Below the pieces are notes generated by a model. That model saw nothing but the letters and a program-made list of their open reading frames with translations. It searched no databases and was not told the origin of the DNA. Shown here one piece after another: positions 30,392 to 58,244 of a stretch of 64,000 nucleotides of DNA (positions are counted from its first letter, which is position 1; each line of letters opens with the position of its first letter). The translations under genes and the position numbers were made by a program. The stretch is from an uncultured Actinomycetes bacterium (GTDB lineage Bacteria; Actinomycetota; Acidimicrobiia; Acidimicrobiales; Ilumatobacteraceae). The DNA lies in assembly GCA_963847945.1 (NCBI GenBank), contig CAWKBX010000009.1:583915-647914 (forward strand), given 5' to 3'.

Positions 30392-31472
30392 ATGACCTCT
30401 CACCCCACCGCCACCGATCAATCACCCATCCCCCCGTTCATCAAGGGCGCGACGATCTCGCTGCGCGCCCCCAACGACGGCCTGGCGAGATTCGAAGAAG
30501 ATGCTGCCCTCCTCGCCTCGGTCGGCATCAGCCGGCTGCGCGTCGGGTTCGACTGGGCGACGTTTCAGCCTCGCCCCGGGGGACTCGACGACGACTGGTG
30601 CGAGTCCCTCGGCACCCTCATCGACGCCGCCTCGGCGGTCGGCATCGGCATCGTCGCCGGACTCAACGACGGACCACTGCCCGGCTGGTTCGTCGACGAC
30701 GGTGGCTTCGGCGATGCCAAGCACGCTGGACGCTGGTGGCCCCGGTGGGTCGAAGCGGTCGCCGAAACCTTCGGTGATCGCCTCGCCGGTTGGGTCCCGA
30801 TGAACCGACCACTGCTACTGGCCAAGCCGTGGGCCGACGACCCCAAGCGCTACGTCGAGGCCTTGACGATCACCGCCGCGGCCTGGCGCGACGCGTGGCG
30901 CATTCTGCCGCGGTGGTCCGCCGGTGGCGACCGACCTCAGCCTGCGCATCGTCCGGGCGGTCGATCAGACCATCCCGGCCGCCGATGACGCCCGGCGCGA
31001 GGACCATCTACGTTGGCGCATGTGGCTGCGAGCCCTGCGCGATGGCGTCGTCGCCTTCCCCGACGGCCCCGAGCGGCGCATCGAGGAGCTCGGCAGCTCG
31101 CTCGATGTGCTGGGCTTCTCGACCACATGCGACATTCCGGTCAACGCTCCGCTCACCACCGAGGGGCTCGAACGTTGGGAACATCGGTTGGGCACGATGT
31201 TGCGACGCCTCGCGGAGGAGGGGCCGGATCGTCCACTCGCTCTGACGTTGAAGGTCGTCCACCCCGACGACGATGATCGGCGCATCATCTTCGAATGGTC
31301 GGCGCGAGCCATCGTCGAAGCTCGCCGTGACGGGATTGCCCTCGATGAGGCCTATCTCGACCCGGCGATCGACCATCGGCCCGGGAGCCGCGAGGGCGGG
31401 GTGCTCGATCGGGATCGCGACCTGAAGGCAAGTTCCTCAGTGTGGTTGGCCAACACGCCCAGCGGTGGCTAA
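30392..31472 (+). CDS. glycoside hydrolase family 1-like TIM-barrel protein; one frameshift near 30935 and a possibly altered acid/base motif (NRP for NEP)
   Basis: RVGFDWATFQPRPG resembles the GH1 RFSISWSRILP signature; WVPMNRP stands where W-x-x-NEP is expected; the gene continues in ORF 30924..31472. Confidence 0.45.
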
Positions 31473-31562: not shown

Positions 31563-32438
31563 TTGAAGTGGATCGTACTGATCCTGCTCGTTGCTGCGAT
31601 TGGGGTCGCGGTGTCGGCATGGTTGAAGAGCAGCCGCCAAACGATCGCGGTCACGTCCCCGGTTGAGCGCATCTTCGTGTACCAGAAACGACTTCGGCAG
31701 ACCGCTCCACTCGGGTTTTTCCACGGCCTGGTCGACGATCCGCTGACCGGTCGGGGGCGCACCGACCCCGGCAAGCAGCACCTCAAGATGGGGATCCACT
31801 CGTTCATCCGCCCGGTCATCGCCGTCAAGTGCTCGTCGGGTCAATACGCGATCACATTCTGGTCCGACGATGAGGTGAGTTGGAAGGCCGCCAAGGGGTC
31901 ACACACGCAGGGTCCGATCCCGGTGAAAACGGCCGACCTCATTCCGGCCAAGGTCGCCCTGCGGGCGTCGTATGCGATTATCGACAGCCCTGATCAGCTG
32001 TTGAAGATTCAGATGCCCGAGGCGTTCGCAGAGCGAGCGATCGCCGACGTCCTGGTCGCCACCCGCGAGGCGATCGGGCGGCGCGACAGCCTCGACTACG
32101 CCACGATCGGCCGCGAAGACTTGTCGGGCGAGCTGTTCGCCGACATCGACGCCCGGTTGAAGAAGCGCGGCCTGGTGTTGCGTGACCTGTGGCTCGGCAA
32201 CATCGAGTTCGATCCGGAAGTGCAGCAGGCGATCAAAAATCGCTTCAATGCCATGACCCTGGCCGACATCCCGCGGATCGCCGCTGGCGGTCAAGCTGTT
32301 GCCAACCGAGTGATCGCCGAGAGCGTGTCACCGCAGCTCATCGAGCTGATCCGCGCCGAGCGATCGGGCAACCCGTGGAACTACTGGGTGGCCCACATGG
32401 CCGAACTCGAAGGCAGCCCCAAGTCGCTCCAACGCTGA
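31563..32438 (+). CDS. SPFH/band-7 (stomatin/prohibitin-like) domain membrane protein
   Basis: N-terminal TM (MKWIVLILLVAAIGVAVSAWL) followed by an SPFH-like core. Confidence 0.65.
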   Translation: MKWIVLILLVAAIGVAVSAWLKSSRQTIAVTSPVERIFVYQKRLRQTAPLGFFHGLVDDPLTGRGRTDPGKQHLKMGIHSFIRPVIAVKCSSGQYAITFWSDDEVSWKAAKGSHTQGPIPVKTADLIPAKVALRASYAIIDSPDQLLKIQMPEAFAERAIADVLVATREAIGRRDSLDYATIGREDLSGELFADIDARLKKRGLVLRDLWLGNIEFDPEVQQAIKNRFNAMTLADIPRIAAGGQAVANRVIAESVSPQLIELIRAERSGNPWNYWVAHMAELEGSPKSLQR

Positions 32439-32545
32439 CAAATCGCTGGCAAATCGGGTCTCTTCCCCGATTTGCCAGCTGTCGTTGTCGTCGATCGTTG
32501 TCGGGAGTCCACGGGCGGAGCCCCCCGTGTCAGGGCCCCGTGTGA

Positions 32546-33986
32546 CTACGCCTTGGCGTGGTAGCCGAGGATCGCCTTGGCCTCGAGGAACTCCATGAGC
32601 CCGTGCTTGCCGAACTCGCGGCCGTTGCCCGACTGCTTGTAGCCGCCGAACAGTGGCGTTCGAGTCGGTGCCGGCACCGTTGAGGTGCACGTTGCCCGAC
32701 CGCATGCGGCGAGCCACCGCGCGGGCCCGGTCGGCGTCGGTCGACGAGACGTAGCCGGCCAGGCCGTAGACGGTGTCGTTGGCGATGCGCACGGCGTCGT
32801 CCTCATCGTCGTAGCCGATGATCGACAGCACCGGGCCGAAGATCTCTTCGCGGGCGATCGTCATGTCGTTGGTGACGTTGGCGAACACCGTCGGCTTGAC
32901 GTAGAAGCCGGCTGTCGAGCCCGTCGGGACGGCCGGGGCCACCGGCGACGAGCGTGGCGCCCTCGTCGATGCCGGTCTGGATGAGCCGCTGGATCTTGTC
33001 GAACTGCAGCCTCGGACGCGACCGGGCCGATGACGGTGCCCTCGGCGTTCGGGGTCGCCGACGGCGATCTTGTCGGCGGCGGCCCCGGCGATCGCGGCGG
33101 CCTCGTCCATCCGGTCGTGGCGGCACCAGCATGCGGGTTCCGGCGTTGCACGACTGGCCCGAGTTGACGCACATCGGCCGACGTCACGGGCGACCACCGC
33201 TGCGAAGTCGACGTCGTCGAGGATGATGTTGGCCGACTTGCCACCGAGTTCCTGCGCGACACGCTTGACGGTCGGGGCGGCGTTGCGGGCAACTTCGATC
33301 CCGGCGCGGGTCGAGCCGGTGAACGAGACCATGTCGACGTCGGGATGCGACGACAGCGCCGCACCGACGGTCGGGCCGTCGCCGTTGACCAGGTTGAACA
33401 CGCCGGCCGGCACGCCGGCCTCGTGCATCACTTCGGCGAAAACGATGGCGTTGAGCGGCGCGACTCTCCGACGGCTTGAGCACCATCGTGCAGCCGGCCG
33501 CGAGCGCCGGGGCGACCTTGGCGGCGATCTGGTTGAGCGGCCAGTTCCACGGCGTGATGAACGCGCAGACCCCGATCGGCTCGTACTCGATGCGGCTGGT
33601 GCCGACGTCTTCGGCGAACTCGAACGCCTCGAGCGCCTTGGCCGTCGCCATGAAGTGGCCGATGCCCGACGGGGCCTGGGCCCGGTTGGCCAGCGAACGT
33701 CGGCGCGCCCATCTCGCAGCTGACCGCGGCGGCGATGTCGCCCATGCGCGCCTTGTAGACCTCGATGATCCGGCCGAGCAGGGCGAGGCGATCTTCACGC
33801 GTCGTCTGCGAGAAGGTGTCGAACGCAGCCTTCGCGGCGGCGACGGCGGCGTCGACATCGGCCTGGTTACCCAGGGCGATGGTGCCGACGACCTGCTCGG
33901 TTGCCGGGTTGACGACGTCGAGCGTGGCGCCGGACGACGGGCTCGACCCACTGGCCGTTGATGTAGAACTTCTGGGCGTTGTCCAT
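32546..33986 (-). pseudogene. NAD(P)-dependent aldehyde dehydrogenase, at least 7 frameshifts
   Basis: A full-length ALDH can be read only by hopping frames (ORFs 33428..34030, 32861..33364, 32803..33174, 32546..32806 and others). Motifs are conserved across the shifts: [52 protein letters not shown]. Confidence 0.85.
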
Positions 33987-34040: not shown

Positions 34041-35459
34041 TCAGCTCCGGCTGCGGTATGCCGCCCGGGCGCCGGAGGAATCCTTGTTCAGCCGCTTCGA
34101 CAGGTGCAGCCCCTCGAGGATGAACTCGACGGCGGCAGCAACGGCGGCCGGGGACTCGTCACCGGCGGTCAAGCCGACGACTGCGGGACGCAGGGCCGGG
34201 ATCTGCTCGATGAGCCGGGCGGCGTCGACCGACGAGACGTCTTCGCCGGTGTGGGCGACGATGCCTTCCTCGAACGAGGTGACCACGTCACGAATACCCT
34301 CGGTCGCTACAACATCGCGATAGACGGTGAGGACCGCGCCGCGCAGCATGTTCTCGATGATCGAACCCTCACGGCCGTCTTCCAGCGACTCGATCTCGAC
34401 CTTGCCCGAGGTCGATGCGGGTAGGGCATTGAGATCGGAGATCCGCGGGACGACCTCGCTCTCGCCCGCCCGCAGACCGCGGCGAACGGCGTTGGCGCAG
34501 AGCACCTCGATATTGCTGACCGACAACCGCACCGACACGCCGCTGCGCTGATTGACCTGGCTGCTGGCGCGGGCCATGTGCGAGAAGGTGGCGACGATGC
34601 GCTCCATGTACTCGGGAACGTGGACCTGCACGTTGCCGATGCTCGCCGGACGAGCCTCCTGGCGCATGATCGCGATCTCGGTCGACACGTCGAGCGGATA
34701 GTGGGTGCGGATCTGACTGCCGAAACGATCCTTCAACGGAGTGATGATCCGACCGCGGTTGGTGTAGTCCTCGGGGTTGGCCGAAGCCATCAGCAGCACA
34801 TCGAGCGGCAGCCGGATCTTGTAGCCGCGGATCTGCACGTCGCGCTCCTCGAGCACGTTGAGCAGACCAACCTGGATGCGTTCGGCCAGGTCAGGGATCT
34901 CGTTGATAGCGAAGATGCCGCGGTTGGTGCGGGGTACCAGGCCGTAGTGCAACGTCAGTTCGTCGCTCAGGTAGCGACCCTCGGCGACCTTGATCGGGTC
35001 GACCTCGCCGATCAGGTCGGCGATCGAGGTGTCGGGGGTGGCCAGCTTCTCGCCGAAGCGCTCGTCGCGATGCACCCAGGAGATCGGGGTGTCGTCACCG
35101 TTGTCGGCGACCAGCGCCTTGGCATGGCTCGAAACCGGATTGTATGGGTCGTCGTTGATCTCGCTACCGGCGACGATGGGCATCCATTCGTCGAGCAGGC
35201 CAGTGAGGGAGCGGATCATGCGGGTCTTGGCCTGGCCGCGTTCGCCGAGGAAGATCACGTCGTGACCGGCGAGGATCGCGTTCTCGAGTTGTGGCATGAC
35301 GGTGTCTTCGTAGCCGAGCACGCCCTCGAACAGCGGGTGCCCGGCGGCGATGCGAACGACCGCGTTGCGACGGAGTTCTTCCTTGACGGGCACCGATTGC
35401 CAACCAGATGCACGTAGCGCACCGAGGGTGTTCGGACGGGACTGGTCAGCTTCGGCCAT
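34041..35459 (-). CDS. ChlI/BchI-MoxR-like AAA+ ATPase (Rv0958-like, putative Mg-chelatase-type)
   Basis: Walker [11 protein letters not shown], Walker B/sensor [11 protein letters not shown], arginine finger region [10 protein letters not shown]; 472 aa. Confidence 0.85.
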
Positions 35460-36350
35460 GTGCCGACCATATCCCGAGCGGGTACTGTTCTGCCTACCGA
35501 CACCCCTCTAGATCCGGAGTCCTTCGTGCCGATCGCCCAGCGACCCGTTCTGCCGACCTCTGTCGTCGACGACTTCCAGCAAGACGGAGCGGTGCTCTTG
35601 CGCGGCGTACTCGCCGACGAGTGGCTGGAGAAGCTGTCCACTGGAGTGGAGTACAACCGAACGAACCCGAGCCAGTACGGCTACGGCTACACCAAGCCCG
35701 GATCGTCGGTTGGGTTCTGGGCGGACTATGTGACCTGGCAGAACGTGCCGGAGTACCGAGACATCGCCTTCAACAGTGGCCTCGCCGCCCACGCCCGGCA
35801 GTTGATGGGTTCGACGACCAGCCGGTTCTTCCACGAGCACGTACTAGTCAAGGAAGCCGCGACCGCGGAGCGGACGCCGTGGCATCACGATCAGCCGTAC
35901 TACTGCGTGAACGGCGACCAGAACGTCAGCATGTGGGCTCCGCTCGACACCGTTCCGGCTCACTCAGGGATGCGGTTGATCGCCGGTTCGCACCGCTGGA
36001 ACCGGTGGTTCATCCCCCGCAAGTTCATCGATCACACGCCGTACGCCCAGCCGAGCGAGCACTACGAACTGATCCCCGACATCGATGCGATGATCGCGGA
36101 CGACCCATCGCTGCGGGTGCTCTCGTTCGATGTCGAACCGGGTGACGTGGTCGCCTTCCACTACCGCACCCTCCACGATGCTGCGGGGACGACCGAGTTG
36201 GACGGCGGTCGGCGGGTCGTCAGCCTGCGGTGGATCGGCGACGACGCCACCTTCGGTCTACGGCCGTGGCTGCACTCCCCGCCCTTCGAGCAGGCCGACC
36301 TCGAACTCGGCGGCCCCCTCGACGACGACCGCTTCCCCCTGGTCGACTAA
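35460..36350 (+). CDS. phytanoyl-CoA dioxygenase (PhyH) family Fe(II)/2OG oxygenase
   Basis: HHDQPYY (H-x-D), a distal His (FHYRTLHDA) and a double-stranded beta-helix core. The start codon is uncertain: no ATG, so a GTG or TTG within the first ~30 nt. Confidence 0.7.
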   Translation: MPTISRAGTVLPTDTPLDPESFVPIAQRPVLPTSVVDDFQQDGAVLLRGVLADEWLEKLSTGVEYNRTNPSQYGYGYTKPGSSVGFWADYVTWQNVPEYRDIAFNSGLAAHARQLMGSTTSRFFHEHVLVKEAATAERTPWHHDQPYYCVNGDQNVSMWAPLDTVPAHSGMRLIAGSHRWNRWFIPRKFIDHTPYAQPSEHYELIPDIDAMIADDPSLRVLSFDVEPGDVVAFHYRTLHDAAGTTELDGGRRVVSLRWIGDDATFGLRPWLHSPPFEQADLELGGPLDDDRFPLVD

Positions 36351-36359
36351 CCCAACCTG

Positions 36360-36957
36360 CACCACTCCGACTCGACCGACCCCCCGGACTTCAGCCCGGC
36401 AACTCGTCTCGCGCCACCACCGGACGCCACTTTGGAGCACAATCACGCTCCCAGCGTGACCGCACTCCCCGAAACCCGAAACCCGAGCCCCCGCGGCTGG
36501 GCGGGGCGGCGACTTGGCACTGGGCGATCTCGGATATGGTCCCAGGCGTGCAGCGGCGTGACCTCGAGAATGGACTGCCAGCCCCCACCGGGGGTTGGCG
36601 AGCCTGCCCCGGGGCTCCCCCGGGGTGTCAAGTGTTGCTTGAGCATTCCATCGCCGGCGCGAGACGGTGCTGGCGCACCGCACCACGCCCGCACGGCCAG
36701 TACAGTCGAGGCGCGTCGCTGCACCCATGAATCGGCGGGATCAGATCATCACCCAGGCGGTCGCCGGAGCGTTTCTCGCCGGCGAGTGGGAGCCACGGCT
36801 GATGGTTCGCCGTGCCGGCCGAGCGCTGGGCGATCGCCGGACCACCTGGTTGACGCCGCTCGCCACGTTGGTCGTCCACGCCTTTCCCATTGCCCCTCAC
36901 GACGCTCCTCGCGAGTTGGGTGCCGTCATCTGGGCGAGTGGAATCATCCAGGAACAA
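36360..36957 (+). ncRNA. candidate retron msr/msd-type non-coding RNA region upstream of the RT (boundaries not determined)
   Basis: About 600 nt without a convincing CDS, carrying several G-rich hairpins (ccccc-acc-ggggg at 36581-36593, ccccggggctcccccgggg, tcaag-tgttg-cttga at 36629-36645, ctggc..gccag at 36669-36700) and a short tandem gaaacccgaaacccga. Position and orientation match a retron ncRNA; a1/a2 repeats could not be assigned by eye. Confidence 0.25.
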
Positions 36958-38082
36958 ATGCGCGCCGACACGATGGCGCTCCGACCGCAGTGGCGAATCC
37001 ACCCCGCTACGGCACCGATTCGAATGAGAGCGACGCCCTGGCCCGTTGCCGAGATCGACTCGCTCGGTGACTTGGCCGAGCATCTCGGGCTCTCCACCGG
37101 GCGCCTCCGGTGGTTCGCTGACGTCCGATCGTGGGAGCGGGCTGTCGGTGTCGAGCCTCTGCGGCAGTACCGCTACCGGTGGCTGCCGTCGTCGAGCGGC
37201 TTTCGGCTGATCGAGGCGCCCAAGGGCACGTTGCGACACATCCAACGAGTGTTGCTCCGCACCATCCTCAACCATGTACCCATCCACGATGCCGCCCACG
37301 GGTTCCATGTCGGCCGATCGATCCACGGCTTCGTCGCCCCACACGTGGGCGCACCGGTGCTGATCAAGGCCGACCTGCGGGCGTTCTTCACCTCGATCAC
37401 GGCCGGACGCGTCTTCGGCCTGTGGCGGCGGATGGGCTACGCGGAGCCGGTCGCCCACGTCTTGACCGGGCTGACCACGAACGCAGTCCCCTCGTCGGTT
37501 CTGCGTCGATCGCCCGCCGCCGATCACCACCTCGCCGCGCTCCTTCGTGGCCCGCACCTCCCGCAGGGAGCCCCGACGTCACCCGCCTTGGCCAATCTGC
37601 TGGCATTTCACCTCGACGTGAGACTCGATGCGATGGCGCGGTCGTTCGGGGCGAACTACACGCGCTATGCCGACGACCTCGCCTTCTCGGGGGCCGCGAC
37701 GCTGGAAAAACGACAGCTCGCCCTGCTGCGGCTGGCCGAGGAGATCGTGCGCGACGAGGGTTTCCGGCTCAACCCGCTCAAGACCGCGGTCGCCGGCCCC
37801 GCACAGCGACATCGACTTGCCGGCATCGTCGTCAACGCTCGACCGAACATCGATCGACGAGAATACGACCAGCTCAAGGCCGAGTTACACGATGCCGTCA
37901 CCAACGGACCGGTCGTCGCCAACCGGCGCGACAACCCGCATTTTCGCGACCACCTGCTCGGCCGCATCGGCTGGGTTGCCGAGCTCAATCCGCCACGGGC
38001 CGAACGACTGGAGGCGATGTTCGACCGCATCACATGGGATACGACGGGAAAACGACGACGGCGTGAGTGTGTGACGCCGTGA
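36958..38082 (+). CDS. retron-type reverse transcriptase
   Basis: Collinear with Ec86-type retron RT: WPVAEIDSLGDLAEHLGLSTGRLRWF; SGFRLIEAPKGTLRHIQRVLLRTIL; VAPHVGA (NAxxH-like); DLRAFFTSI; LPQGAPTSPALANL; YTRYADDLAFS; GFRLNPLKT; HRLAGIVVN (VTG-like). No maturase or endonuclease domains. The start is taken at ATG 36958 (aGGAAcaaATG); the ORF is open back to 36667. Confidence 0.85.
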   Translation: MRADTMALRPQWRIHPATAPIRMRATPWPVAEIDSLGDLAEHLGLSTGRLRWFADVRSWERAVGVEPLRQYRYRWLPSSSGFRLIEAPKGTLRHIQRVLLRTILNHVPIHDAAHGFHVGRSIHGFVAPHVGAPVLIKADLRAFFTSITAGRVFGLWRRMGYAEPVAHVLTGLTTNAVPSSVLRRSPAADHHLAALLRGPHLPQGAPTSPALANLLAFHLDVRLDAMARSFGANYTRYADDLAFSGAATLEKRQLALLRLAEEIVRDEGFRLNPLKTAVAGPAQRHRLAGIVVNARPNIDRREYDQLKAELHDAVTNGPVVANRRDNPHFRDHLLGRIGWVAELNPPRAERLEAMFDRITWDTTGKRRRRECVTP

Positions 38083-38100
38083 GGCAATCGCACACTCACG
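38078..38100. terminator. hairpin between the convergent RT and rpsJ genes (gtgag..ctcac stem)
   Basis: cgtgag-gcaatcgcaca-ctcacg lies in the 44-nt gap between the two stop codons. Confidence 0.35.
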
Positions 38101-38126
38101 CCGACGCGTGAATCAGTGAACCGAAA

Positions 38127-38441
38127 TCAGGCGGACTGAATCTTGATTTCGATGTCGACGCCGGCCGGCAGCTCGATGCGCTGCAGGCTGTCGATGGTCT
38201 TCGGGTTCGGATCGACAATGTCGATCAGGCGCTTGTGAATGCGCATCTCGAAGTGCTCACGGCTGTCCTTGTCCTTGTGCGGCGACCGGATGACCGTATA
38301 ACGGTGCTTGTCGGTCGGCAGCGGGATGGGACCGCGCACCTTGGCGTTGGTACGGGTGACCGTCTCGACGATTTTCTTCGTCGACTGGTCGATGATTTCG
38401 TGATCAAACGCCTTGAGGCGAATACGGATGCTCTGGGCCAT
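38127..38441 (-). CDS. rpsJ: 30S ribosomal protein S10
   Basis: [14 protein letters not shown]...RGPIPLPT...[16 protein letters not shown] is canonical S10. Confidence 0.95.
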
Positions 38442-38458
38442 GTTGTTGTATCAGCCGA

Positions 38459-39643
38459 TCACTTGAGAATCTTGGTGACGCGGCCGGCGCCAACGGTACG
38501 GCCACCCTCACGAATAGCAAACCGCAACTGCTCATCCATCGCGATCGGCTTACCAAGCTCCACGATCATCGTCACGTTGTCACCAGGCATGACCATCTCG
38601 GTCCCCTCCGGCAACTGCACCATCCCCGTCACATCCGTCGTACGGAAGAAGAACTGCGGCCGGTAATTGTTGAAGAACGGCTTATGACGACCACCCTCCT
38701 CCTTGTTCAACACATACACCTGACCCTCAAAATTCGTATGCGGAGTAATACTGCCCGGCTTACACAACACCTGCCCACGCTCAACATCCTCCTTCTTCGT
38801 CCCCCGAAGAAGCGCACCGATGTTGTCGCCCGCCATACCCTCATCAAGCAACTTACGGAACATCTCCACACCCGTACACGTCGTCTTCTGCGTCTTACGC
38901 AACCCAACGATCTCAATCTCATCGCCCGTGTGGACCTTGCCCTGCTCAATCTTGCCCGTGACCACCGTGCCACGACCCGTGATCGTGAACACATCCTCAA
39001 TCGGCATCAAAAACGGCTTATCCAACTCACGCAACGGCTCCGGCACCGACGCATCACACGCCGCCATCAACTCCATGATCTTTTCCTGCCACGCCTCATC
39101 ACCCTCCAACGCCTTCAACGCGCTGACCCGCACCACAGGGCAATCATCACCCGGAAACTCATACTCCGACAGCAACTCGCGAACCTCAAGCTCCACCAGC
39201 TCCAGCAGTTCCTCATCATCGACCATGTCAGCCTTGTTCAACGCCACCACGATGTACGGCACCCCAACCTGACGAGCCAACAACACATGCTCACGCGTCT
39301 GGGGCATCGGACCATCAGTCGCCGCCACCACCAAGATCGCCCCATCAACCTGAGCCGCACCCGTGATCATGTTCTTGATGTAGTCCGCGTGACCCGGCAT
39401 GTCCACATGGGCATAATGGCGATTCACCGTCTCGTACTCGATATGCGCGATCGAGATCGTGATACCACGAGCCTTCTCCTCCGGCGCCTTATCGATCTGA
39501 TCAAACGGCGTGTAATTCGCCAGACCCTTACCCGCCAACGTCTTAGAAATCGCCGCCGTCAACGTCGTCTTACCATGGTCAATATGACCCATAGTGCCGA
39601 TATTCACGTGCGGCTTATTCCGCTCGAACTTTGCCTTGGACAT
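38459..39643 (-). CDS. tuf: elongation factor Tu
   Basis: [26 protein letters not shown], full-length canonical EF-Tu. Confidence 0.97.
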
Positions 39644-40067
39644 TGGACTACTGCTCCGTTTGCGTGATGAGGGGTGTCAAGGATCGGACGCGCTCGGGGG
39701 CTCCCGGGCACAAGGTCGACCATCCTCAGCGCGCCTGCGGGCCGCGCCAAACTCCACGCTCAGGTTCCCGCAACGGGAGGCCTGAGCAGGACTTCGTGGG
39801 TGATCGTGGCCCCATCGTACCCTCACAACGCGGCATCGATCACATGTCGAACGGTCATCTCGGTCGAGTCATGCGGGTGCCGATGAGACGGGTTTCCGGT
39901 CCGCTCATTCCACCCGGCCCGACGGCGCCGGTGACGTCTGCTGCGTCGATGGGTTGGGCACACGGCGATCTGATCGAAACGCCTCAACCCGAGATTCACG
40001 TCGCGGATGATCAGCGCCTTCCACGGATCGCCCATCACACCGAAGGAACCTCGGCAACTACCAGGCG

Positions 40068-40448
40068 ATGATTGACGGGTTGGCTTCGCCGTTCGAATAC
40101 CGATTCCTCGGCGATCATCCGTTGAGCGGCCGACGAACCAGCACCGTCACGATCGATCTATGGTGGCAGCGAATCTTCCGGCTCCTGCCGAACGGGAAGT
40201 TCACGATCCATCAGATCGTCGTGCAGGGCAACCCGTTCAAGACGCGCATCGCCGTGCGGTCGACCATCAGCGCAGCCTTGGCGTCGGGTGACGGGTACTC
40301 CAACGACGTGATGCAGTTCAGGCGGCTCCGGCTCGGCAAGCTCACCCGCATCGAAACGATGGAGGACACCGCCAAGTTCGAGCGCTACCTCACGACGCTC
40401 GACCCTGCCACCCACCCGGACGCCATCGCCCCGCCGATCAACGACTGA
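40068..40448 (+). CDS. hypothetical protein (NTF2/SnoaL-like fold suspected)
   Basis: 126-aa ORF; the pattern and size suggest an NTF2-like protein; weak. Confidence 0.35.
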   Translation: MIDGLASPFEYRFLGDHPLSGRRTSTVTIDLWWQRIFRLLPNGKFTIHQIVVQGNPFKTRIAVRSTISAALASGDGYSNDVMQFRRLRLGKLTRIETMEDTAKFERYLTTLDPATHPDAIAPPIND

Positions 40449-40528
40449 CCCATACTGGTCGGTCGCGCAGCAGTCGGGCCCGTACCCATCTCCCCAGTTG
40501 GTTCCGCTCGGAACCTACGGCCGAGCGA

Positions 40529-42520
40529 TCAAACGAGCAGGGGGTTGGTGACGACGTCGACGAGCGCCGGACCGGGGTGAGCCAGGGCGGTCGCGATGGC
40601 CGAGTCGAGGTCGGTTGGGTCGGTGACGCGGATGCCGCGGGCACCGCAGAGCTCGGCGAAAGCGGCGAAGTCGGGGTTGTGGAGCGAGGTCTGCCACACG
40701 TCCCAGTGGGCGGCCCGTTGCTCTTTGGAGATCTTGCCCAACTCGCTGTTGTCGAGCACCACGTGGGTGATGTTCATGCCGTACTTCACCGCGGTGGTCA
40801 TCTCCATGGCGTATTGACCGAGCCCGCCGTCGCCACTGATCGACACAATCTGGCGGGTGTCACCGACTGCCGCCCAGGCCCCCATCGCCGCCGGGAGAGC
40901 GAAGCCGATCGAGCCGAGGTAGCCCGACATCACCAGATCCTGGCGGCCTGAGGCCTCGAAGTAGCGACCAAATGAGTAGGTGTTGTTGCCCACGTCGACG
41001 GCGATGACGGCGTTGGGGTCGATCAGCCGGGTGAGGCTCGCCATCACCGCGGCGGCCCCGATGCCATGCGCTGCATCGTCGGCGGCGCGCTTCGACTTCT
41101 CGGCTCGCCACAGGGACCACCGTTGGGCGACCTCGGCCCGCTGATCGACCTCGGCCCGCGGGTCGCTGTCGACTCGGACTTCGAGCGCGGCGATCATCGC
41201 CCGAGCGGTGACAGCCACATCGCCAAGCAGACCGACCTCGACGCCGTGGAACCGGCCGATCGACATCGGGTCGTCGTCGATCTGGATCGTCGGTTTGTAC
41301 GACGCAATCCCGGTGTGATTCGAGAAGCTGGCACCGAACACCACCAACAGATCGCTCTCGTTCATGAACCAACTGGCCACGGGCGTACCCGACCGCCCGA
41401 GCACACCACACCCGAGCGGATGGCTGTCGCTGACGAGCCCCTTGGCCTTGAACGTCGTCCCAACCGGTGCACCGAGCCGTTCGGCGAGATCCATGATCGC
41501 GGTCATCTGCCCGCGGCAGCCCGCTCCCACAACGATCATCGGGCGTCGCGCCGTGCGCATCATCTCGAGCGCGCGGTCGAGTTCGGCGGCCGGTGGCGCA
41601 GTGGCTCGTGAGGCGAGACGACCCGCCGGCGTGCCGGCCGCCGCATCGGCCGCTACCGGGTGGTGCTGCACCTCGTCGGGCAGAATCAAGTGAGCCACGC
41701 CGCGCCCGACAATCGCGTGCTTCATCGCCAGACCGGCGAGTTCGGCATGGTCGGAGCCGAGCGCGACGGTCTCGCTGTAGAGCGTCACATCGGCGAACGC
41801 CGCTTCGAGGTCGGTGTCCTGGAATGCTCCACGGCCCCGTACCTTCGACGGCACCTGACCCGAGATGGCGAGCACCGGTGAGCGGTCCTCGCGGGCGTCA
41901 TACAAGCCGGTAAGCAGGTTGGTCGAGCCCGGCCCCGCGATCCCGAAGCACACCGCCGGGCGACCGGTGAGCTTCCCGTAGGCCGACGCAGCGAACGATG
42001 CTGCGCCCTCATGGCGGATGCCGACGAAGGTGAGTTCGCCGCGTTCGGCGGCCTTGCGCATCGCGTCGGCGAACCCGAGGTTGGAATGGCCGACCATGCC
42101 AAACGCGTGGGTGAGTCCCCAGTTGACCAGCGTCTCGACGAGTACATCGGCGACCGTTCGCGGCTGCACCGGTTCAGGCGGGAGGGCAACGTAGACACCG
42201 TCGGCGCGGGTTTCCACGGCGAAGCAGGCCGGCGCGTCGGAGAACCCCGTAGGAGGCTTGCCGGTCACGGGTGAGTAGTCGTAGCCGTGCCACGGGCACC
42301 GCAGCCAGCCGTTCTCGATCGATCCTTCGCCGAGCGGTCCACCCTGGTGCGGACAGGCATTGTCGAGGCAGCCGTACTGGCCGTCGTGATGCGTCATCGC
42401 CAGCGAGCGCCGCCCGACCGAGACGGTGGTGACCCGACCCTCGGGCAGCTCGTCGGGGCCGAGCACTCGGTGCCAGGAGGTACCGCCGGAGTCGCCTGCG
42501 GTGGTGACGTTGTCGTTCAC
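40529..42520 (-). CDS. Rieske [2Fe-2S] domain fused to a thiamine-diphosphate enzyme (acetolactate synthase/pyruvate oxidase family)
   Basis: N-terminal Rieske CPHQGGPL-x16-CPWHGYDY; then TPP enzyme N-terminal (GIAGPGSTNLLTGLYDA...GQV), central and TPP-binding (ISGDGGLGQY...NN) domains. Confidence 0.85.
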   Translation of the reverse strand: MNDNVTTAGDSGGTSWHRVLGPDELPEGRVTTVSVGRRSLAMTHHDGQYGCLDNACPHQGGPLGEGSIENGWLRCPWHGYDYSPVTGKPPTGFSDAPACFAVETRADGVYVALPPEPVQPRTVADVLVETLVNWGLTHAFGMVGHSNLGFADAMRKAAERGELTFVGIRHEGAASFAASAYGKLTGRPAVCFGIAGPGSTNLLTGLYDAREDRSPVLAISGQVPSKVRGRGAFQDTDLEAAFADVTLYSETVALGSDHAELAGLAMKHAIVGRGVAHLILPDEVQHHPVAADAAAGTPAGRLASRATAPPAAELDRALEMMRTARRPMIVVGAGCRGQMTAIMDLAERLGAPVGTTFKAKGLVSDSHPLGCGVLGRSGTPVASWFMNESDLLVVFGASFSNHTGIASYKPTIQIDDDPMSIGRFHGVEVGLLGDVAVTARAMIAALEVRVDSDPRAEVDQRAEVAQRWSLWRAEKSKRAADDAAHGIGAAAVMASLTRLIDPNAVIAVDVGNNTYSFGRYFEASGRQDLVMSGYLGSIGFALPAAMGAWAAVGDTRQIVSISGDGGLGQYAMEMTTAVKYGMNITHVVLDNSELGKISKEQRAAHWDVWQTSLHNPDFAAFAELCGARGIRVTDPTDLDSAIATALAHPGPALVDVVTNPLLV

Positions 42521-44156
42521 GGATGCAGTCCTCCATAGGGAACACCGGCCAGATGGTGCATCTCACGGTCGAACGTCGTGAGATCGTCGATGCACAGCTC
42601 CGACAGATGGTGATGGCCGCAGGCTCGGGCGAGCACGGTCATCAGCTCGACCGTCGCCTCAAGGAAACGGGTGAGCCGACGAGCCGACTCGTCGACCACC
42701 AGCCGCTGGCGAAGACCGGGTTTCTGCGTGGCGATGCCGACCGGGCAGTTGTCGCTGTTGCACGCCCGCATGCCAATGCAACCGATCGCCTGCAACGCGG
42801 CATTGGAGATCGCCACCGCGTCGGCACCGAGCGCGAGCGCCTTCACGAAATCGGTATGGGTACGCAGACCGCCGGTGATCACGAGCGTCACCGCGGATCC
42901 CGATCGGTCGAGATGCCGACGGGCCCTCGCCAACGCCGGAATGGTCGGCACCGAAATGTGGTCGCGGAACAACACCGGCGCAGCTCCCGTCCCCCACCCC
43001 GACCATCGAGGATCACGTAGTCGACCCCGATCTCAAGCGCGGCATCGAGATCGGCCTCGATGTGCTGCGCCGACAGCTTCGCTCCGATCGGAATACCGCC
43101 GGCTGTCTCGCGCACCATCGCCGCGACCTCGCGGTAGTCGCCGGTCGTGCGCAGATCGGGGAAGGTGGCCGGCGAGACCGCCGGTTGGCCCTCGGGCAGA
43201 CCGCGCACCTCGGCGATGCGCCCGACCACTTTGTTGCCCGGGAGATGCCCGCCGGTGCCGGTCTTGGCGCCCTGGCCGAACTTGAAATGGAAGGCCTGAA
43301 CGTCGCGCACCTTGTCGAGCGACCAACCAAATCGGGCCGAGGCGAGCTCATAGAAGTAACGGCTGTTCTCGGCGTGCTCCTCGGGCAACATCCCACCCTC
43401 ACCCGAACAGATGCCGGTGCCCGCGCCCTCGGCACCGCGGGCCAGCGCGACCTTCGCTTCGAGCGACAGTGAACCGAAGCTCATATCGCTGACGAACAAC
43501 GGGATCTTCAGGTGCAGCGGTTTGGCCGCCGTACCGCCGATGGTGATGTCGGTGGCGACCGTCTCGTCATCGAGGAGCGGTCGCTTCGCCAGCTGGGCGG
43601 TGACGATCTGGATCGAGTCCCACAGCGGGAGCCGATCACGGGGCACGCCCATCGCCGCCACCGGGCCATGGTGCCCGACCTTCGACAACCCGTCGATCGA
43701 GAGCTGACGGATCTGGCCGACGAAGGGTTCCTCGGGCGCGCCGTGGGGATCTTGGAACGCCCCTTGGTAGGCATCGCGGTCGTACGGCTGGGGATGCTCA
43801 CGCTCCCAGGCGGCGATCTCGTCGGCGTCGACCATGAGCTGATCGCTGACCTCGTCGACCCACGACGTGAAGAGGTGGAGCTGCTGGTCGTTGTCGTACG
43901 CGCTGATCCCGGTGCGCAACGAGTAGTCCCAACCGTGCAGCCCGCAGACCAGGTCGTCGCCGCGGACCGTGCCGTCTGCCATCAGTGCGCCGCGGTGCAG
44001 GCATCGGCCGTAGAGGACTGAATGCTCGTCACCGAAACGGACGATCACCAGATCGACATTGGCCACGATCGCACCCGTCGGCGTGCGATCACTCAACTCG
44101 CTCCACCGGGCGACGGACACTGGTGTCATTGAGGTCGTTGGCGTCGTTGTTGTCAT
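42517..44156 (-). CDS. Rieske [2Fe-2S] domain fused to a glutamate synthase domain-2-like FMN/Fe-S oxidoreductase; one frameshift near 42990
   Basis: Rieske CLHRGALMADGTV-x-CGLHGWDY followed by GltS-type motifs (GSLSLEAKVALARGA, SGEGG, FKFGQGAKTGTGGHLPG). The C-terminal part (GGLRTHTDFVKALALGADAV..CPVGIATQ) continues in ORF 42517..42975. 4-nt overlap with the downstream Rieske-TPP gene. Confidence 0.8.
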
Positions 44157-44174
44157 GGCGGGAATCGCTCCTGG

Positions 44175-44888
44175 TCAGACAAGCCGACGATAGCCGACGA
44201 GCAGGAATGCGGTGCCCGCACCGATGACATCGGCCGACTCTCCGGCGAGTTCGCTGCGGGCGCGGAACGCGCCGAACGGGGCGTTCCAGAACCCGGCGTC
44301 GCCGGGGCGGTCGGCGGTCCACGGCCCGACATAGAGATACGGCTCATTGCAGAATCCGTCGCCGGGCGAGCCGCCGAGATTCACCCGTCGATCGGCATGA
44401 GCTTGGGCCTCGATCGCCACATCGAAGTGTTCGGGCCACAGTCGGGGCAGCGTGGGTCGGGCGGCGGCGGGCAGGTCGACCAGCACCCGGTCGAGGATCG
44501 CCGCAATCGTTGCGAACCATCCGGTGACGTCGGCTGCGCCGACGCCGTCGAGAACGATCGGAGCATCAGCGTCGCCGACCGGCGGCGTGTCGCGACCGAC
44601 ATCGAGCGGTTCGGCAAGGTCGACGCCGGCGAACGCGGCGAGCTGCGCGAGCGAGGACCCATTGATCTCGATCGACCCGATGGAAGCCTCGCCGGGTGCG
44701 TCGGACTCGACGATCAGATGGGCTCCCGACACCCTCACCCGCCGTCCTACCGGAGGGAGATCGGGCGTGCCGAAACCCCCGGGAGCGACGCGCAATGAGA
44801 ACCGGGTGGAAGCCGCTACCCGGGCCCGAGCAACCACATGCACGGCGACGCTGTGCAACGATTCGCGGGCGGCTGAGAAGGTGTCCAT
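44175..44888 (-). CDS. hypothetical protein (first gene of the Rieske-fusion operon)
   Basis: 237-aa ORF, co-oriented and 19 nt upstream of the Rieske-GltS gene; no family recognised. Confidence 0.4.
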   Translation of the reverse strand: MDTFSAARESLHSVAVHVVARARVAASTRFSLRVAPGGFGTPDLPPVGRRVRVSGAHLIVESDAPGEASIGSIEINGSSLAQLAAFAGVDLAEPLDVGRDTPPVGDADAPIVLDGVGAADVTGWFATIAAILDRVLVDLPAAARPTLPRLWPEHFDVAIEAQAHADRRVNLGGSPGDGFCNEPYLYVGPWTADRPGDAGFWNAPFGAFRARSELAGESADVIGAGTAFLLVGYRRLV

Positions 44889-44994
44889 GTAACAAAGTCT
44901 CCCAGGTAAAACGAGGCCGGCCGACGGGCCCTTGGATCTCCCACACCGTCATCCAGAGCGCCACCGCGTTACGAAATGGGGTACTGACCGACCC

Positions 44995-45924
44995 CTACCC
45001 GACGCCGGGGACGGCGCTGATGAGCTGGTGGTAGAGATCGTCGGCGGTGGCGTCGGGGACGCCGTGACGGGCGAACCAGTTGGCGATGTTGACGCAGTCG
45101 CGGTGAAGAAATTCAAAACCCTGCGGATTGCCGACCAGGTCGACGGCTTGGGGTAGGTCGATGAGCACCAACCGGTCGCCGTCGACCAACACGTTGTACG
45201 GCGACAGGTCACCATGGGCCAATCCCGCGTCCGCCAAGGCACCCAACACACGGACCATCTCGTCGTACAGGTGGGCGGCGAAGTCGGGCGAAGGCCGGAG
45301 TTGGGCAAGGCGGGGCGCGGCCTGACCATCGGCCGAGCCGACGAACTCCATCATCAACTCGGTACCGATCAACTGCACCGGATAGGGCACCGCCGCCCCA
45401 ACCGACCACAGGCGCGACAACACACTGAACTCCGCCGCGGCCCACTGCCCGGCGATCAGGTCGCGTCCGAAGGTGGTGCGGGTGGCCATCGCCCGGGTTT
45501 CACGACTGCGCCGCATTCGGCGACCTTCGAGATAGCCGGCGTCGCGGTGGAACATGCGGTGCTCGGCGCTGCGATATCGCTTGGCGGCAAGCAGGCATCG
45601 ACGGCCGTCGGGTGCGATGCGTTCGATCAACGAGACGTCGGCCTCCTTGCCGGTCTTGAGCACACCGTGGTCGGTGTCGAGCGCCCGGGCGTCGGTGACC
45701 ACCCAGCCGGGTACCGGGCCTGGACCATGGGCGGAATCGGTGTACGTCGACCACGCGGGTTCGAGATGCTCGTCGGCGTCGAAGCGGTTCGAAACATCGA
45801 CCAGTTCGACACGTTCGGTGTCATCGTCGGCGTCGTGGTCGTGGTCGTGGTCGTGAGCGGGGTTTGACGGTTCCCAACCGTCGTCGTCGAACTTGGTTCG
45901 ACGGGTGCTGCGGGGTGCAGCCAT
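44995..45924 (-). CDS. RIO-type atypical serine protein kinase
   Basis: Catalytic loop LAHGDLSPYNVLV and metal-binding LIDLPQ match the RIO1 LVHGDLSEYN / IDxPQ motifs; His/Asp-rich N-terminus. Confidence 0.65.
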   Translation of the reverse strand: MAAPRSTRRTKFDDDGWEPSNPAHDHDHDHDADDDTERVELVDVSNRFDADEHLEPAWSTYTDSAHGPGPVPGWVVTDARALDTDHGVLKTGKEADVSLIERIAPDGRRCLLAAKRYRSAEHRMFHRDAGYLEGRRMRRSRETRAMATRTTFGRDLIAGQWAAAEFSVLSRLWSVGAAVPYPVQLIGTELMMEFVGSADGQAAPRLAQLRPSPDFAAHLYDEMVRVLGALADAGLAHGDLSPYNVLVDGDRLVLIDLPQAVDLVGNPQGFEFLHRDCVNIANWFARHGVPDATADDLYHQLISAVPGVG

Positions 45925-46125
45925 CAGTGGATGTCTCCTCGGTGCGGATGGCACCGAGCAAGGTCAGCCGGTGCCGGATCAGTGGCGTTCAGGGGCGCGG
46001 GAGTAGAGGTCGACAGTCATTGCTGGACCTCCTTTCCGCACCGAAGCGCACTCGCAGACGTAGAGCACAAAGTAGCCCGGCCGTGCGACACCCGCAACCG
46101 ATTTACGCGCGCTGCCCGACGCGTT

Positions 46126-46863
46126 CTATTGCAGCGCCGTCATCATTCCGCCGTCGATGGGAAGGCCGACGCCGGTGACGTAGCAGGCAGGTTGCGAGCA
46201 GAGGAAGGCGGCGACGCGGCCGAAGTCTTCAGCGCGGCCGTACATGCCGGCGGGTACTCCGGCCGGGGGCGGCAGGCTTGACGCATCGCCACCCATGCGG
46301 GCGGTTGCATGGAGGCCGGGTTGGACTGAGTTGACGGTCACGCCGTCGGCGGCGACGGCTAGGGCCAGGGTCTTGAGGTAGCCGGTGACGGCGGGGCGGG
46401 TGATGTTCGACAGGGCGATTGCAGGGATCGGCTGGCGAGCGGTGATCGAGGTGATCGCCACGATCCGCCCCCACCGCTGTTGACGCATGGGACCCAACGC
46501 CGCCGCGCACATGCCGATCGTCGAGTGCAGGTTCAACTCCAACGCCGCGGTCACCGACTCGGCGTCGACGATCTCGATGCCGCCCATCGGCGGTCCGCCG
46601 GCGTTGGGGACAAGGATGTCGATCGGCCCACCGAGGGCGGCGGCGGCCTGCTCGACGAACGACCGGCCACCTTCGTGGCTGCCGATGTCGAGCACGATCG
46701 CCACCGCGCCGATGCGCTCCGCGGCAGCTTGCACCTTGGCGGCATCGCGCCCACAGATCGCCACCGCAACCCCGGCGTCGCGCAACGCGGCCGCGGTGGC
46801 GAACCCGAGTCCTTCCGATGCTGCGGCCACGGCAGCCCGACGGCCGGCGATTCCAAGATCCAT
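46126..46863 (-). CDS. SDR family oxidoreductase
   Basis: Rossmann AAASEGLGFA, NAG, YxxxK-type core. Confidence 0.8.
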   Translation of the reverse strand: MDLGIAGRRAAVAAASEGLGFATAAALRDAGVAVAICGRDAAKVQAAAERIGAVAIVLDIGSHEGGRSFVEQAAAALGGPIDILVPNAGGPPMGGIEIVDAESVTAALELNLHSTIGMCAAALGPMRQQRWGRIVAITSITARQPIPAIALSNITRPAVTGYLKTLALAVAADGVTVNSVQPGLHATARMGGDASSLPPPAGVPAGMYGRAEDFGRVAAFLCSQPACYVTGVGLPIDGGMMTALQ

Positions 46864-46969
46864 GGGACACCTCGTCAAAAGTTCGTTCGGGACACAACCG
46901 AACCCCATTCGGTCGGTCGCCACCTCAACGGTAGTCCGGGTGACGTCGCGACCTCGACGGTCAAGCAGA

Positions 46970-47107
46970 TCAGGCGGCGGCGACGGTCACGAACACCGAC
47001 AGGGCGGGCACGACGAGTGCGGCGAAGGCGAGGACCGCCAGACCCGCTTTGGTCGGCACGCCGCGGTGCTTCGAACGAGCGGATCGGGATGCTTGACGAC
47101 GGTTCAT
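46970..47107 (-). CDS. possible small membrane protein (46 aa)
   Basis: MNRRQASRSARSKHRGVPTKAGLAVLAFAALVVPALSVFVTVAAA: a basic N-terminus plus one TM helix; could be spurious. Confidence 0.25.
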   Translation of the reverse strand: MNRRQASRSARSKHRGVPTKAGLAVLAFAALVVPALSVFVTVAAA

Positions 47108-47271
47108 CGTGATGACTCCTTGGATCGCGACCACCGACGGCTTCGATGGCCGCCCGGCAATCGGCTCCAGCGCCCGCAGGCACCGTCCGACCACTCAAAG
47201 CACGATGCAGCCCGCCAGCAGGTTTGGGTGCAGGTGATTATTCGGCTGAAATCCTGCTGAACGTGTTCACG

Positions 47272-48597: not shown

Positions 48598-49576
48598 GGT
48601 GATGAAGTTACGCCGAGCCGCAGGAGTCGACGGGCGTTGTCGTCGTACTCGGCGCGGTAGGGGATCTCGGCCGGGTCGTGGGGGGCGTCCCAGCCGGCGA
48701 GGTTCGTGCCAACGACCAGCCGGTCGACCCCGACCTTGCCCTCCACCAGGTCGAACGCGTCGACGTCGTGGACGTGCTGATCGAACCACAGGCGCCGGAG
48801 GCCGGCACCGAAGTCGACCGGGTTCGACCGGGCCCACGGCCGCGACCGGCCCTGGTGCTCCAGGCGACCGACCATGAACGCGGCCGCCCCGCCGCCGTGG
48901 GAGAAGCACACGTCGAGGCCTGGATGACGGTCGAGCACCCCGCCGTAGATCGATGCAGGCGACAGCCAGGGTCTCCTCGTACAGAAACCCCAGCGACAGA
49001 TCGAGGTCGAACTTGCGGATGCGCTCGTCGCGCAACGGGCCGTCGATTCCGGCCGGCGCAGGGTGGATGAAGATCGGCACGTTTCAGTTCGACGGCCGCG
49101 GCCCACAGCGGGTCGAGCCGTTCGCTGTCGAAGGTCATCCCGAAGTCGGTGCCGATGTACGCACCGAGCAGACCGAGGTCGTCGACTGCTCGTCGTAGCT
49201 CGATACACGCCGCATCGACGTCTTGCATCGGGAGCTGGGCGAAACCCCGTAGACGATCGGGATAGGCATCGACAACCAGCGCCAGTTCGTTGTTGTGCCA
49301 CCGGCAGAACTCGGCCGCGGTGGCCGGCTCGATGTGGTGGAAATAGGTGATCGGGTTGGGCGAGAGCACCTGAAGCTCGATGCCGAGATGGTCGTTCAGC
49401 GCCAGACGACGGTCGACATCCATGAACGGGGAGTCGCGGTACTTGACCCCTTCGAGCACGTAGTCGCCGGCTCGGAACCGGGCGATGCCGTCGGCACCCT
49501 CGGTCAGAGTCGGGCCGTAGACCCCGGCGCAGCCGAGTACCCCTTCGAGCACCACATGGGCATGGACGTCGATCAT
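48561..49576 (-). CDS. amidohydrolase-2 (ACMSD-like) family protein, frameshifted near 49300
   Basis: MIDVHAHVV start motif; the C-terminal half continues in ORF 48561..49301. Confidence 0.6.
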
Positions 49577-50783: not shown

Positions 50784-50813
50784 GATCCCTGACTCCTTCC
50801 CCGACTGGCGAGC

Positions 50814-52318: not shown

Positions 52319-52327
52319 CAGGGCGGC

Positions 52328-53473: not shown

Positions 53474-53535
53474 TCCCGGACACTACTCACGGTTGACCGA
53501 GGCGCATTTCAGCGGACCACGAACAATTACCCTGC

Positions 53536-53940: not shown

Positions 53941-53962
53941 GCCGCGAGTCGCCGCGACCAGA

Positions 53963-55824: not shown

Positions 55825-55921
55825 CTGCGGAATCGTAGACAGCAACTCGCCGTCCAGCCGTCGAGGAGCGGCGCGGGTCGCGATACTCTCCGCCCGGGGA
55901 AGACACGTGAAGGGGTACGCA

Positions 55922-58242: not shown

Positions 58243-58244
58243 TC

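Follow-up and report, generated by a model that had tools for sequence, protein, structure and literature searches.

Elongation factor Tu (EF-Tu) and ribosomal protein uS10/NusE are encoded next to each other, by tuf and rpsJ, in a 64-kb stretch of DNA from an uncultured member of the Ilumatobacteraceae (hereafter the window, meaning the whole stretch of 64,000 nucleotides), where the usual neighbours fusA and rplC are lacking on either side of the pair. We hold with good confidence that this is the ordinary, vertically inherited tuf-rpsJ pair of the Acidimicrobiia lineage, left as a remnant of an rpoBC-str-S10 cluster that was broken up in place. Judged from the gene order of its relatives the tuf-rpsJ arrangement is ancestral for the clade, and it is a gene-order variant of a known arrangement, not a new system. 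The pair consists of the following elements.

38459-39643, minus strand: tuf, encoding EF-Tu of 394 amino acids; intact, with Pfam and NCBIfam matches.
38442-38458, minus strand: spacer of 17 nucleotides between tuf and rpsJ, without a terminator, as read from the sequence.
38127-38441, minus strand: rpsJ, encoding ribosomal protein uS10/NusE of 104 amino acids; intact, with Pfam and NCBIfam matches.

Both genes are genuine housekeeping genes. The EF-Tu open reading frame carries the three-domain architecture (Pfam GTP_EFTU, GTP_EFTU_D2 and GTP_EFTU_D3) and scores 727 bits against the NCBIfam EF-Tu equivalog TIGR00485, for which the cut-off is 522, while the S10 frame matches Pfam Ribosomal_S10 at 6e-38 and reaches 156 bits for TIGR01049 (rpsJ_bact; cut-off 72.75). 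The EF-Tu protein contains the motif GHIDHGKT as well as NKAD, which replaces the usual NKxD/NKCD form. Its G3 motif is DMPGH, where DCPGH is usual (Met stands at the position of Cys81 of E. coli; residue 82, around window position 39400). As DMPGH was found in 58 of 60 Acidimicrobiia loci, the replacement is class-wide and not peculiar to the window copy. The protein is 96-98% identical to the EF-Tu of relatives. In comparison with locus L088, which lies on the long contig described below, 105 codons of tuf differ, 91 of them synonymously, a pattern from which purifying selection on the window tuf is apparent. The 24 nucleotide differences in rpsJ are synonymous without exception (24/24), which fits a single essential gene. 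The guanine-plus-cytosine (GC) content of the pair is 56-59%, compared to approximately 66% for the window, because the second-position GC of the two genes is low (0.36-0.38), a value typical of translation genes. Exact-sequence look-ups of the window EF-Tu, of the neighbouring SnoaL protein and of protein P0242 gave no entry on record.

The preliminary description of this DNA had noted that the pair lacks fusA upstream and rplC downstream, and this was borne out. In tblastn searches with the E. coli proteins S12, EF-G and L3, no match to rpsL, fusA or rplC was obtained anywhere in the window; the same queries did recover these genes in most of the related loci. The canonical str operon, with rpsL-rpsG-fusA immediately 5' of tuf on the same strand, is accordingly not seen, there being no S12 or EF-G match across the window including the 24 kb upstream of the pair. 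Nor is the canonical S10 operon, in which rpsJ is followed by rplC-rplD-rplW-rplB: no L3 match occurs in the 38 kb downstream of rpsJ. Given the extent of the window on each side, the distance from tuf to fusA is above 24 kb, and that from rpsJ to rplC above 38 kb. The pair does not represent a locus of the tufB type either (tRNA genes 5' of tuf, rpmG/secE/nusG 3' of it): rpsJ follows tuf, and no tRNA genes were found in the window. A tufB-type locus is present separately in the relatives L089, L092, L094 and L098.

The same context was found in close relatives, an outcome that the preliminary description had itself named as a refutation of its view; the arrangement does not stem from a recent event. 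The S10 loci closest to that of the window are labelled Ilumatobacteraceae or Ilumatobacter, and seven further contigs code for exactly the S10 protein of the window. The closest long genome is represented by the 3.57-Mb contig ERZ25039524:contig_7133 (loci L001/L088; EF-Tu 96% identical), on which genes of an ABC transporter stand directly 5' of tuf-rpsJ and rpsJ is followed by genes for Usp, a P-type ATPase, PhyH, an AAA ATPase and Band_7. PhyH directly follows rpsJ in L005, and in L002, L003, L093 and L095 a reverse transcriptase (RT) gene lies between rpsJ and PhyH, as it does in the window. The closest relatives have no fusA upstream of the pair and no rplC within 10 kb. Since the arrangement is common to L001/L088, L002, L003, L005 and L095, and independent contigs span both junctions, it is older than the split between these organisms, and no chimeric join underlies the junction at 38083-38126.

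A scan with the S10 protein, taking one genome per species, yielded 80 loci, all from Acidimicrobiia, onto which EF-Tu, S10, S12, EF-G and L3 were then mapped. Distant members of the class (S10 78-85% identical) have the order rpsL-rpsG-fusA-tuf-rpsJ-rplC, usually with rpoC directly before it, and adjacency of rpoC and rpsL is the norm in the class. The spacer from tuf to rpsJ has a class-wide median of 22 nucleotides and is at most 60 nucleotides long in 61 of 71 loci. The gap between rpsJ and rplC is no longer than 100 nucleotides in only 2 of 56 loci and typically measures some 200-440 nucleotides even in compact ones; it widens to 1.55-9.5 kb in the 13 loci at the level of the Ilumatobacteraceae (those with an S10 identity to the window of 87.5% or more and with rplC in view). 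Its contents are variable and include a Mutator-family transposase (L011), HtrA-like proteases, a META-domain protein and a hydrolase. Several loci at this level also have an insert of 1-6 kb between rpsG and fusA. The separation of rpsJ from rplC is hence a family-wide, growing feature, and on the evidence of gene order rpsJ behaves in the Acidimicrobiia as the last gene of the tuf unit, with the rpsJ-rplC spacer as a site that appears permissive for insertion. The cluster is broken in other ways too within the class. In a member of Ca. Hopanoidivoransaceae (L059, 7875-10300) rpsJ comes directly after fusA with no tuf in between, and in one of the Microthrixaceae (L040, 4363-10309) tuf and rpsJ are 4.4 kb apart, tuf being the upstream gene, and the 4.3 kb that precede tuf contain no fusA.

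For fusA a position was found in the closest long genome, on the strand of tuf and 17.4 kb 5' of it. By walking upstream on contig_7133 from the exact maleylacetate reductase protein P0241, the order rpsG-fusA-island-tuf-rpsJ was found, on one strand and downstream of rpoBC, where the island measures 17,399 nucleotides and holds 17 genes. These encode two proteins without a Pfam match (107 and 164 amino acids), VWA_CoxE, an IclR regulator, a PnpCD-like dioxygenase subunit, an aldehyde dehydrogenase, two CoA-transferase subunits, maleylacetate reductase, a TetR regulator, an acyl-CoA dehydrogenase, a glyoxalase-fold protein, an FAA hydrolase and five ABC-transporter components. The complete order along the strand is tRNA-Tyr...tRNA-Thr-tRNA-Met-tuf-rpmG-tRNA-Trp-secE-nusG-rplKAJL-rpoB-rpoC-(rpsL)-rpsG-fusA-island-tuf-rpsJ, in which rpsL is assumed, as it falls in 1.7 kb that were not seen. 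Because fusA and tuf-rpsJ are colinear on one strand around the island, the str operon was split in place, and the pair did not come from another site by transfer or duplication. Of the two possibilities offered in the preliminary description, a second paralogous copy or a rearranged and interrupted locus, it is therefore the interruption that stands in substance, the gene that is duplicated being tuf alone.

As to its cargo, the island (L096, 2787-19926) resembles a cluster for the catabolism of aromatic compounds (hydroquinone/maleylacetate, beta-ketoadipate-type) with IclR and TetR regulators, and its ABC transporter is of the branched-chain type, an unusual load inside a str operon.

The closest long genome has a second tuf, at rpmG-secE-nusG, but the exact window S10 protein occurs only once on contig_7133; in that genome the duplication, as far as can be read from the contig, concerns tuf and not the tuf-rpsJ pair. 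The contig encodes one EF-Tu protein twice, as direct repeats 35.2 kb apart (L088, 10001-11185; L089, 10001-11185) that flank rpoBC, rpsG and fusA. The surroundings of the second copy are tufB-like: tRNA-Thr and tRNA-Met precede it, and rpmG-tRNA-Trp-secE-nusG come after it. Between the coding sequences of the two copies a single nucleotide out of 1185 is different, and this near-identity begins about 4 nucleotides before the ATG and ends about 20 nucleotides past the stop codon. The window tuf differs from either copy at 125-126 of 1185 nucleotides, mostly synonymously (125 from its orthologue). Such a pattern, the classical signature, indicates concerted evolution of the contig_7133 pair by gene conversion. 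The EF-Tu protein P0002, which is 98% identical to that of the window, was found before rpsJ and also before rpmG-secE. This makes it very probable that the window's own genome likewise has a second tuf, at tRNA-Thr-tRNA-Met-tuf-rpmG-secE-nusG as in its relatives.

The pair is bordered by two conserved non-coding elements.

39644-39758, minus strand: leader and putative promoter region of tuf, 115 nucleotides, from an alignment of the window with L088, L092 and L095.
38046-38102, minus strand: terminator-like hairpin (38060-38102) followed by GTCGTCGTTTTCCC, from folding and covariation.

The leader contains the conserved boxes GAGTTTGG and GCGCTAGGAT/TACGAT, set apart by a non-conserved spacer of 17 nucleotides. 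Two boxes with a variable spacer of this length form the layout expected of a promoter. The boxes are followed by approximately 75 nearly invariant nucleotides, with GATCCTTGACA and a GGAG Shine-Dalgarno sequence, up to the ATG. Three relatives, L014, L016 and L030, also have a CCTTGACAACCCAC-like motif between fusA and tuf, and in L090 one stands 5' of tuf; the form of the leader motif that recurs in the fusA-tuf spacers of relatives is CCTTGACA(A/C)CCC. Its recurrence there suggests that the old fusA-proximal control region of tuf was kept when the island was inserted. In E. coli, tufA is also driven by promoters located inside fus (PMC10931766). Across the Ilumatobacteraceae a motif (T/A)TCCTTGACA(A/C)CCCAC lies 30-45 nucleotides upstream of the tuf start codon (window 39676-39690, minus strand). 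The motif contains a perfect TTGACA, which was considered as a -35 box and ruled out, since no -10-like hexamer follows 16-19 nucleotides further on in the window, L016 or L014.

The hairpin after rpsJ folds with -39.6 kcal/mol (z -5.67) and is kept in seven contigs, including L005, which has no RT gene, with five compensatory base pairs. Its tail GTCGTTTTC is nearly conserved, and the GTTTTC run within it is invariant. Because the T-run is interrupted, the hairpin is not caught by a simple terminator pattern, and we base the call on folding and covariation. The last codons of the RT reading frame overlap the hairpin, which may thus terminate transcription in both directions. A spacer of 17 nucleotides without a terminator implies co-transcription of tuf and rpsJ. 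Taken with the putative promoter and the predicted terminator, the pair is probably a bicistronic operon of its own.

Beyond the hairpin, the gap that would lead to rplC is occupied by unrelated genes.

36351-38047, plus strand: indel block of 1.7 kb with a retron-type RT gene, between the rpsJ terminator and the PhyH stop codon, delimited by DNA comparison; context and not part of the operon.
36667-38082, plus strand: retron-type RT gene, 471 amino acids, convergent with rpsJ, identified with PADLOC.
35460-36350, plus strand: gene for a PhyH-family dioxygenase (Pfam PhyH).

The best PADLOC matches of the RT are RT_other (529 bits, 2.9e-159) and the RT_outgroup 'retron' (499 bits, 3.1e-150), and the protein falls below the cut-offs of all named NCBIfam retron families. 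The 316 non-coding nucleotides 5' of the gene (36351-36666) could be a site for an msr/msd RNA; no effector partner of the RT is obvious. PhyH homologues are found between rpsJ and rplC in L009, L035, L058, L062, L097, L100 and L102, the one in L100 being 44% identical to the window PhyH and in equal orientation relative to rpsJ. By this distribution PhyH is an old resident of the rpsJ-rplC gap in the Ilumatobacteraceae. The AAA ATPase was considered as another old resident and ruled out, since in L100 PhyH is followed by a protein of 399 amino acids that has no relation to the ATPase.

The course of events that we propose starts from a class-wide state in which rpsJ would effectively end the tuf transcription unit, some 200 nucleotides or more ahead of rplC. 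In the Ilumatobacteraceae this spacer would have become a landing site for PhyH, an HtrA-type protease, a transposase and other genes. In the genus-level clade of the window a further block, of catabolic and transporter genes, would have been inserted between fusA and tuf; its counterpart in the window probably exceeds 37 kb, assuming the same order as in the closest genome. What would be left is a self-contained bicistronic operon made up of the conserved leader and promoter region, tuf, the short spacer, rpsJ and the conserved intrinsic terminator, with the second tuf at the rpmG-secE-nusG site kept nearly identical by gene conversion.

Several observations weigh against this interpretation. 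A scan for consensus promoters and terminators gave no relevant site at tuf-rpsJ, and the absence of a recognisable promoter counts here. The leader has no significant fold (z -0.36), Rfam gave no match in 37900-40200 even at a permissive threshold, and the spacer before rpsJ shows no obvious Shine-Dalgarno sequence. Moreover, no member of the clade yielded a position for rplC; when metagenomes were scanned with the leftmost large gene of the window, in order to extend the locus toward rplC, the matches were relatives at about 30% identity only. Finally, how many copies of tuf and rpsJ the window's genome has, and where its fusA and rplC lie, is carried over from a relative with an EF-Tu identity of 96%.

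An extra, paralogous tuf-rpsJ copy, duplicated or acquired horizontally, with a canonical fusA-tuf-rpsJ-rplC elsewhere in the genome, would agree with the duplication of tuf in close relatives and with the GC content of the pair below that of the window, and the window's own genome is not open to inspection beyond its 64 kb. We nevertheless consider this improbable. The second tuf of the closest long genome adjoins rpmG-secE-nusG and comes without a second rpsJ, fusA is followed there by the island and then by the pair, both proteins are closest to sequences of the Ilumatobacteraceae, rpsJ changes as a sole essential copy would, and the low GC has its origin in the second codon position. The preliminary description had placed the RT/PhyH/ATPase block exactly where rplC would be expected, which raises the view that the retron-type RT block is a mobile element that split the S10 operon at the rpsJ-rplC junction. 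It is true that the block is a real indel directly after the rpsJ terminator, and that a transposase occupies the same gap in L011. As the primary cause, however, such an insertion is contradicted and very improbable: L001 and L005 lack the RT and still have no rplC after rpsJ, the gap is family-wide, with PhyH in it where rplC is still within 2-4 kb, and the 38 kb without rplC downstream of the window rpsJ far exceed the size of the RT block.

A chimeric join at or beside the repeated tuf has to be considered as well, as tuf forms a near-exact repeat of 1.2 kb that is mis-traversed in short-read assemblies, and the window contains several frameshifted reading frames. Among the 80 species-representative contigs from genome bins, 34 end within or right at tuf, most of them in its last 270 nucleotides or so, as is expected at the boundary of a two-copy repeat. 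For the abundant EF-Tu protein P0037 all four combinations of upstream and downstream flanks were seen in metagenome contigs, and a real genome with one of them (ACS-YajQ-...-tuf-rpsJ) would have lost rpoBC and fusA. Hybrid contigs also occur in the window clade, in the forms tRNA-Met-tuf-rpsJ (L004, L093) and leader-tuf-rpmG (L092); the most plausible source of these is an assembly path that took the wrong exit from the repeat. Genuine inversions through tuf, of the kind known in Salmonella, were ruled out as their main explanation on two grounds: the long contig has the copies in direct orientation, and a tRNA-tuf-rpsJ form would delete rpoBC. For the window itself we regard an artefact as extremely unlikely. 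It has the parental combination of clade-specific leader, tuf and rpsJ, which is also found in L095 and in the 3.57-Mb contig (L088; presumably from long reads), and a misassembly at 38083-38126, the refutation that the preliminary description had itself proposed, is excluded by five independent contigs that run through the junction of rpsJ and RT (L002, L003, L007, L093 and L095). Short-read contigs with tuf joined to the wrong flank were noted in L004, L092, L093, L097, L103 and L104, including a fusA-tuf-rpmG form; at least those forms that skip rpoBC cannot be viable genomes.

The surroundings of the operon in the window have the following further features.

40068-40448, plus strand: SnoaL_2 (NTF2-like) gene, divergent from tuf (Pfam).
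40529-42520, minus strand: gene for an enzyme with Rieske and TPP domains (Pfam).
39759-45015, not on a single strand: indel block 5' of the tuf leader with SnoaL_2, Rieske+TPP, Rieske+Glu_synthase and a frame of 237 amino acids (Pfam, blastn); missing from L095 and L092.
34041-35459, minus strand: AAA ATPase gene (Pfam).
59652-64000, minus strand: ABC-transporter genes, homologous to those adjoining tuf in the closest long genome.

The neighbours listed in the preliminary description, a Rieske-TPP gene, an NTF2-like gene, a hairpin and a convergent retron-like RT gene, are all present, the one correction being that the NTF2-like gene is on the strand opposite to tuf. In L095 and L092 the gene for a RIO1 kinase (window 44995-45954; blastn against the window) directly adjoins the tuf leader. 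Approximately 20 kb (39756-59651) separate the leader in the window from the ABC-transporter genes that adjoin tuf in the long contig. The homologous genes in the window align to L001 (4287-8612 against window 64000-59652) at 83% identity in blastn and mark the distal part of the fusA/tuf island.

Downstream of rpsJ, a MoxR/Mg-chelatase-like AAA ATPase, a 671-aa protein and a Band_7/SPFH protein (34041-35459, minus; 27780-29795, minus; 31563-32438, plus) form a block that is kept in L001 and L002. The 671-aa protein has a weak, sub-threshold VWA_2 match (22.9 bits, cut-off 27), and its homologue in L001 carries Mb0984/Rv0959-type domains; the block may be a MoxR-VWA chaperone-type module. Against the PADLOC defence models it gave no significant match, with marginal E-values of 0.001-0.004 only. 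A group II intron is located at 9033-10848 on the minus strand (Rfam group-II-D1D4-4 at 10712-10848, 91.6 bits); its encoded protein (9033-10649), with RVT_1 and GIIM domains, is a second RT in the window, unrelated to the one near rpsJ. Several genes are split into two overlapping frames: ppk (23835-25941), a GH1-like gene (30392-31472), an aldehyde dehydrogenase gene (32328-33794) and that of a xanthine-dehydrogenase-type MoCo subunit (55718-58242). They are intact in relatives, for instance the GH1-like protein in L088 (356 amino acids) and the aldehyde dehydrogenase in L002 (477 amino acids). Either the window copies are pseudogenes or a long-read assembly has introduced indel errors into them; neither tuf nor rpsJ is affected.

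The main value of the analysis lies in a clean negative. What looks like an orphan pair is neither a new system nor a paralogue gained by horizontal transfer, and it did not arise through faulty assembly; it would instead be the essential unit of tuf and rpsJ in a lineage where insertions are breaking up the gene cluster that is the most conserved of all in bacteria. The operon limits defined in E. coli, where str ends at tuf and S10 begins at rpsJ, appear to fail in the Acidimicrobiia, as rpsJ there belongs with tuf. The split of fusA from tuf by a 17-kb island for aromatic catabolism and transport is a recent, intra-operon event specific to the clade. There is also a practical warning. A duplicated, homogenised tuf breaks or mis-joins the short-read assemblies of this class, and tuf-adjacent synteny in genome bins is unreliable without long reads.

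Earlier work has described the tufB-secE-rpoBC-str-S10 supercluster and how multigene insertions break it, as well as an ancient duplication of tuf with concerted evolution of the copies (PMC6735719; Brandis 2021, PMC8046335). The closest long genome has the same genes in the same relative order and on the same strand, broken by multigene insertions as in many lineages. The breaks fall, however, inside the operons defined in E. coli (fusA|tuf and rpsJ|rplC), and the junction between operons, tuf|rpsJ, which in enterics is split by bfd-bfr, is here the only one kept tight. The tufA/tufB duplication with concerted evolution in E. coli and Salmonella has been described by Abdulkarim and Hughes 1996 and by Lathe and Bork 2001, as cited in PMC6735719/PMC8046335. 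There are likewise two tuf genes in the relatives of the window, one derived from str and one in tRNA-tuf-(rpmG)-secE-nusG, with identical proteins, nearly identical DNA and an identity that ends at the gene borders; this second copy was observed in relatives and not in the window. The copies differ from the tufA/tufB pair in being direct repeats only 35 kb apart that flank rpoBC and fusA, so that crossing-over would delete or duplicate essential genes instead of inverting a segment. In Rickettsia prowazekii a chimeric tuf/fus arrangement reportedly resulted from recombination between tufA and tufB (Syvanen et al. 1996, J Bacteriol). That arrangement is alike in that tuf adjoins rpsJ without fusA upstream, but it is said to have a single tuf and to retain rplC after rpsJ, whereas here fusA and tuf are colinear around the island and both tuf genes persist.

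In cyanobacteria and plastids the str operon ends in rps10 (rps12-rps7-fus-tufA-rps10), and in archaea the genes for EF-1alpha and S10 are adjacent. For the organisation of the cluster, PMC8046335 cites Coenye and Vandamme 2005. As in these linkages, rpsJ is attached to tuf and detached from rplC throughout the Acidimicrobiia, and the window conforms to this. It departs from the cyanobacterial type of str operon in the contiguity of rpsL-rpsG-fusA with tuf: in the window clade fusA is also detached, and a two-gene unit is left. One may speculate, although we think it rather unlikely, that tuf-rpsJ is indivisible in the Acidimicrobiia, where rpsG|fusA, fusA|tuf and rpsJ|rplC repeatedly accept foreign genes, owing to selection on the coupled expression of EF-Tu and S10/NusE. 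In that case the unit would parallel, in these bacteria, what is seen in archaea and cyanobacteria, and the leader of about 75 nucleotides with its family-wide CCTTGACAaCCCAC motif would be an undescribed regulatory element. The likeness to the arrangement in cyanobacteria, a different phylum, may reflect either the retention of an old state or convergence.

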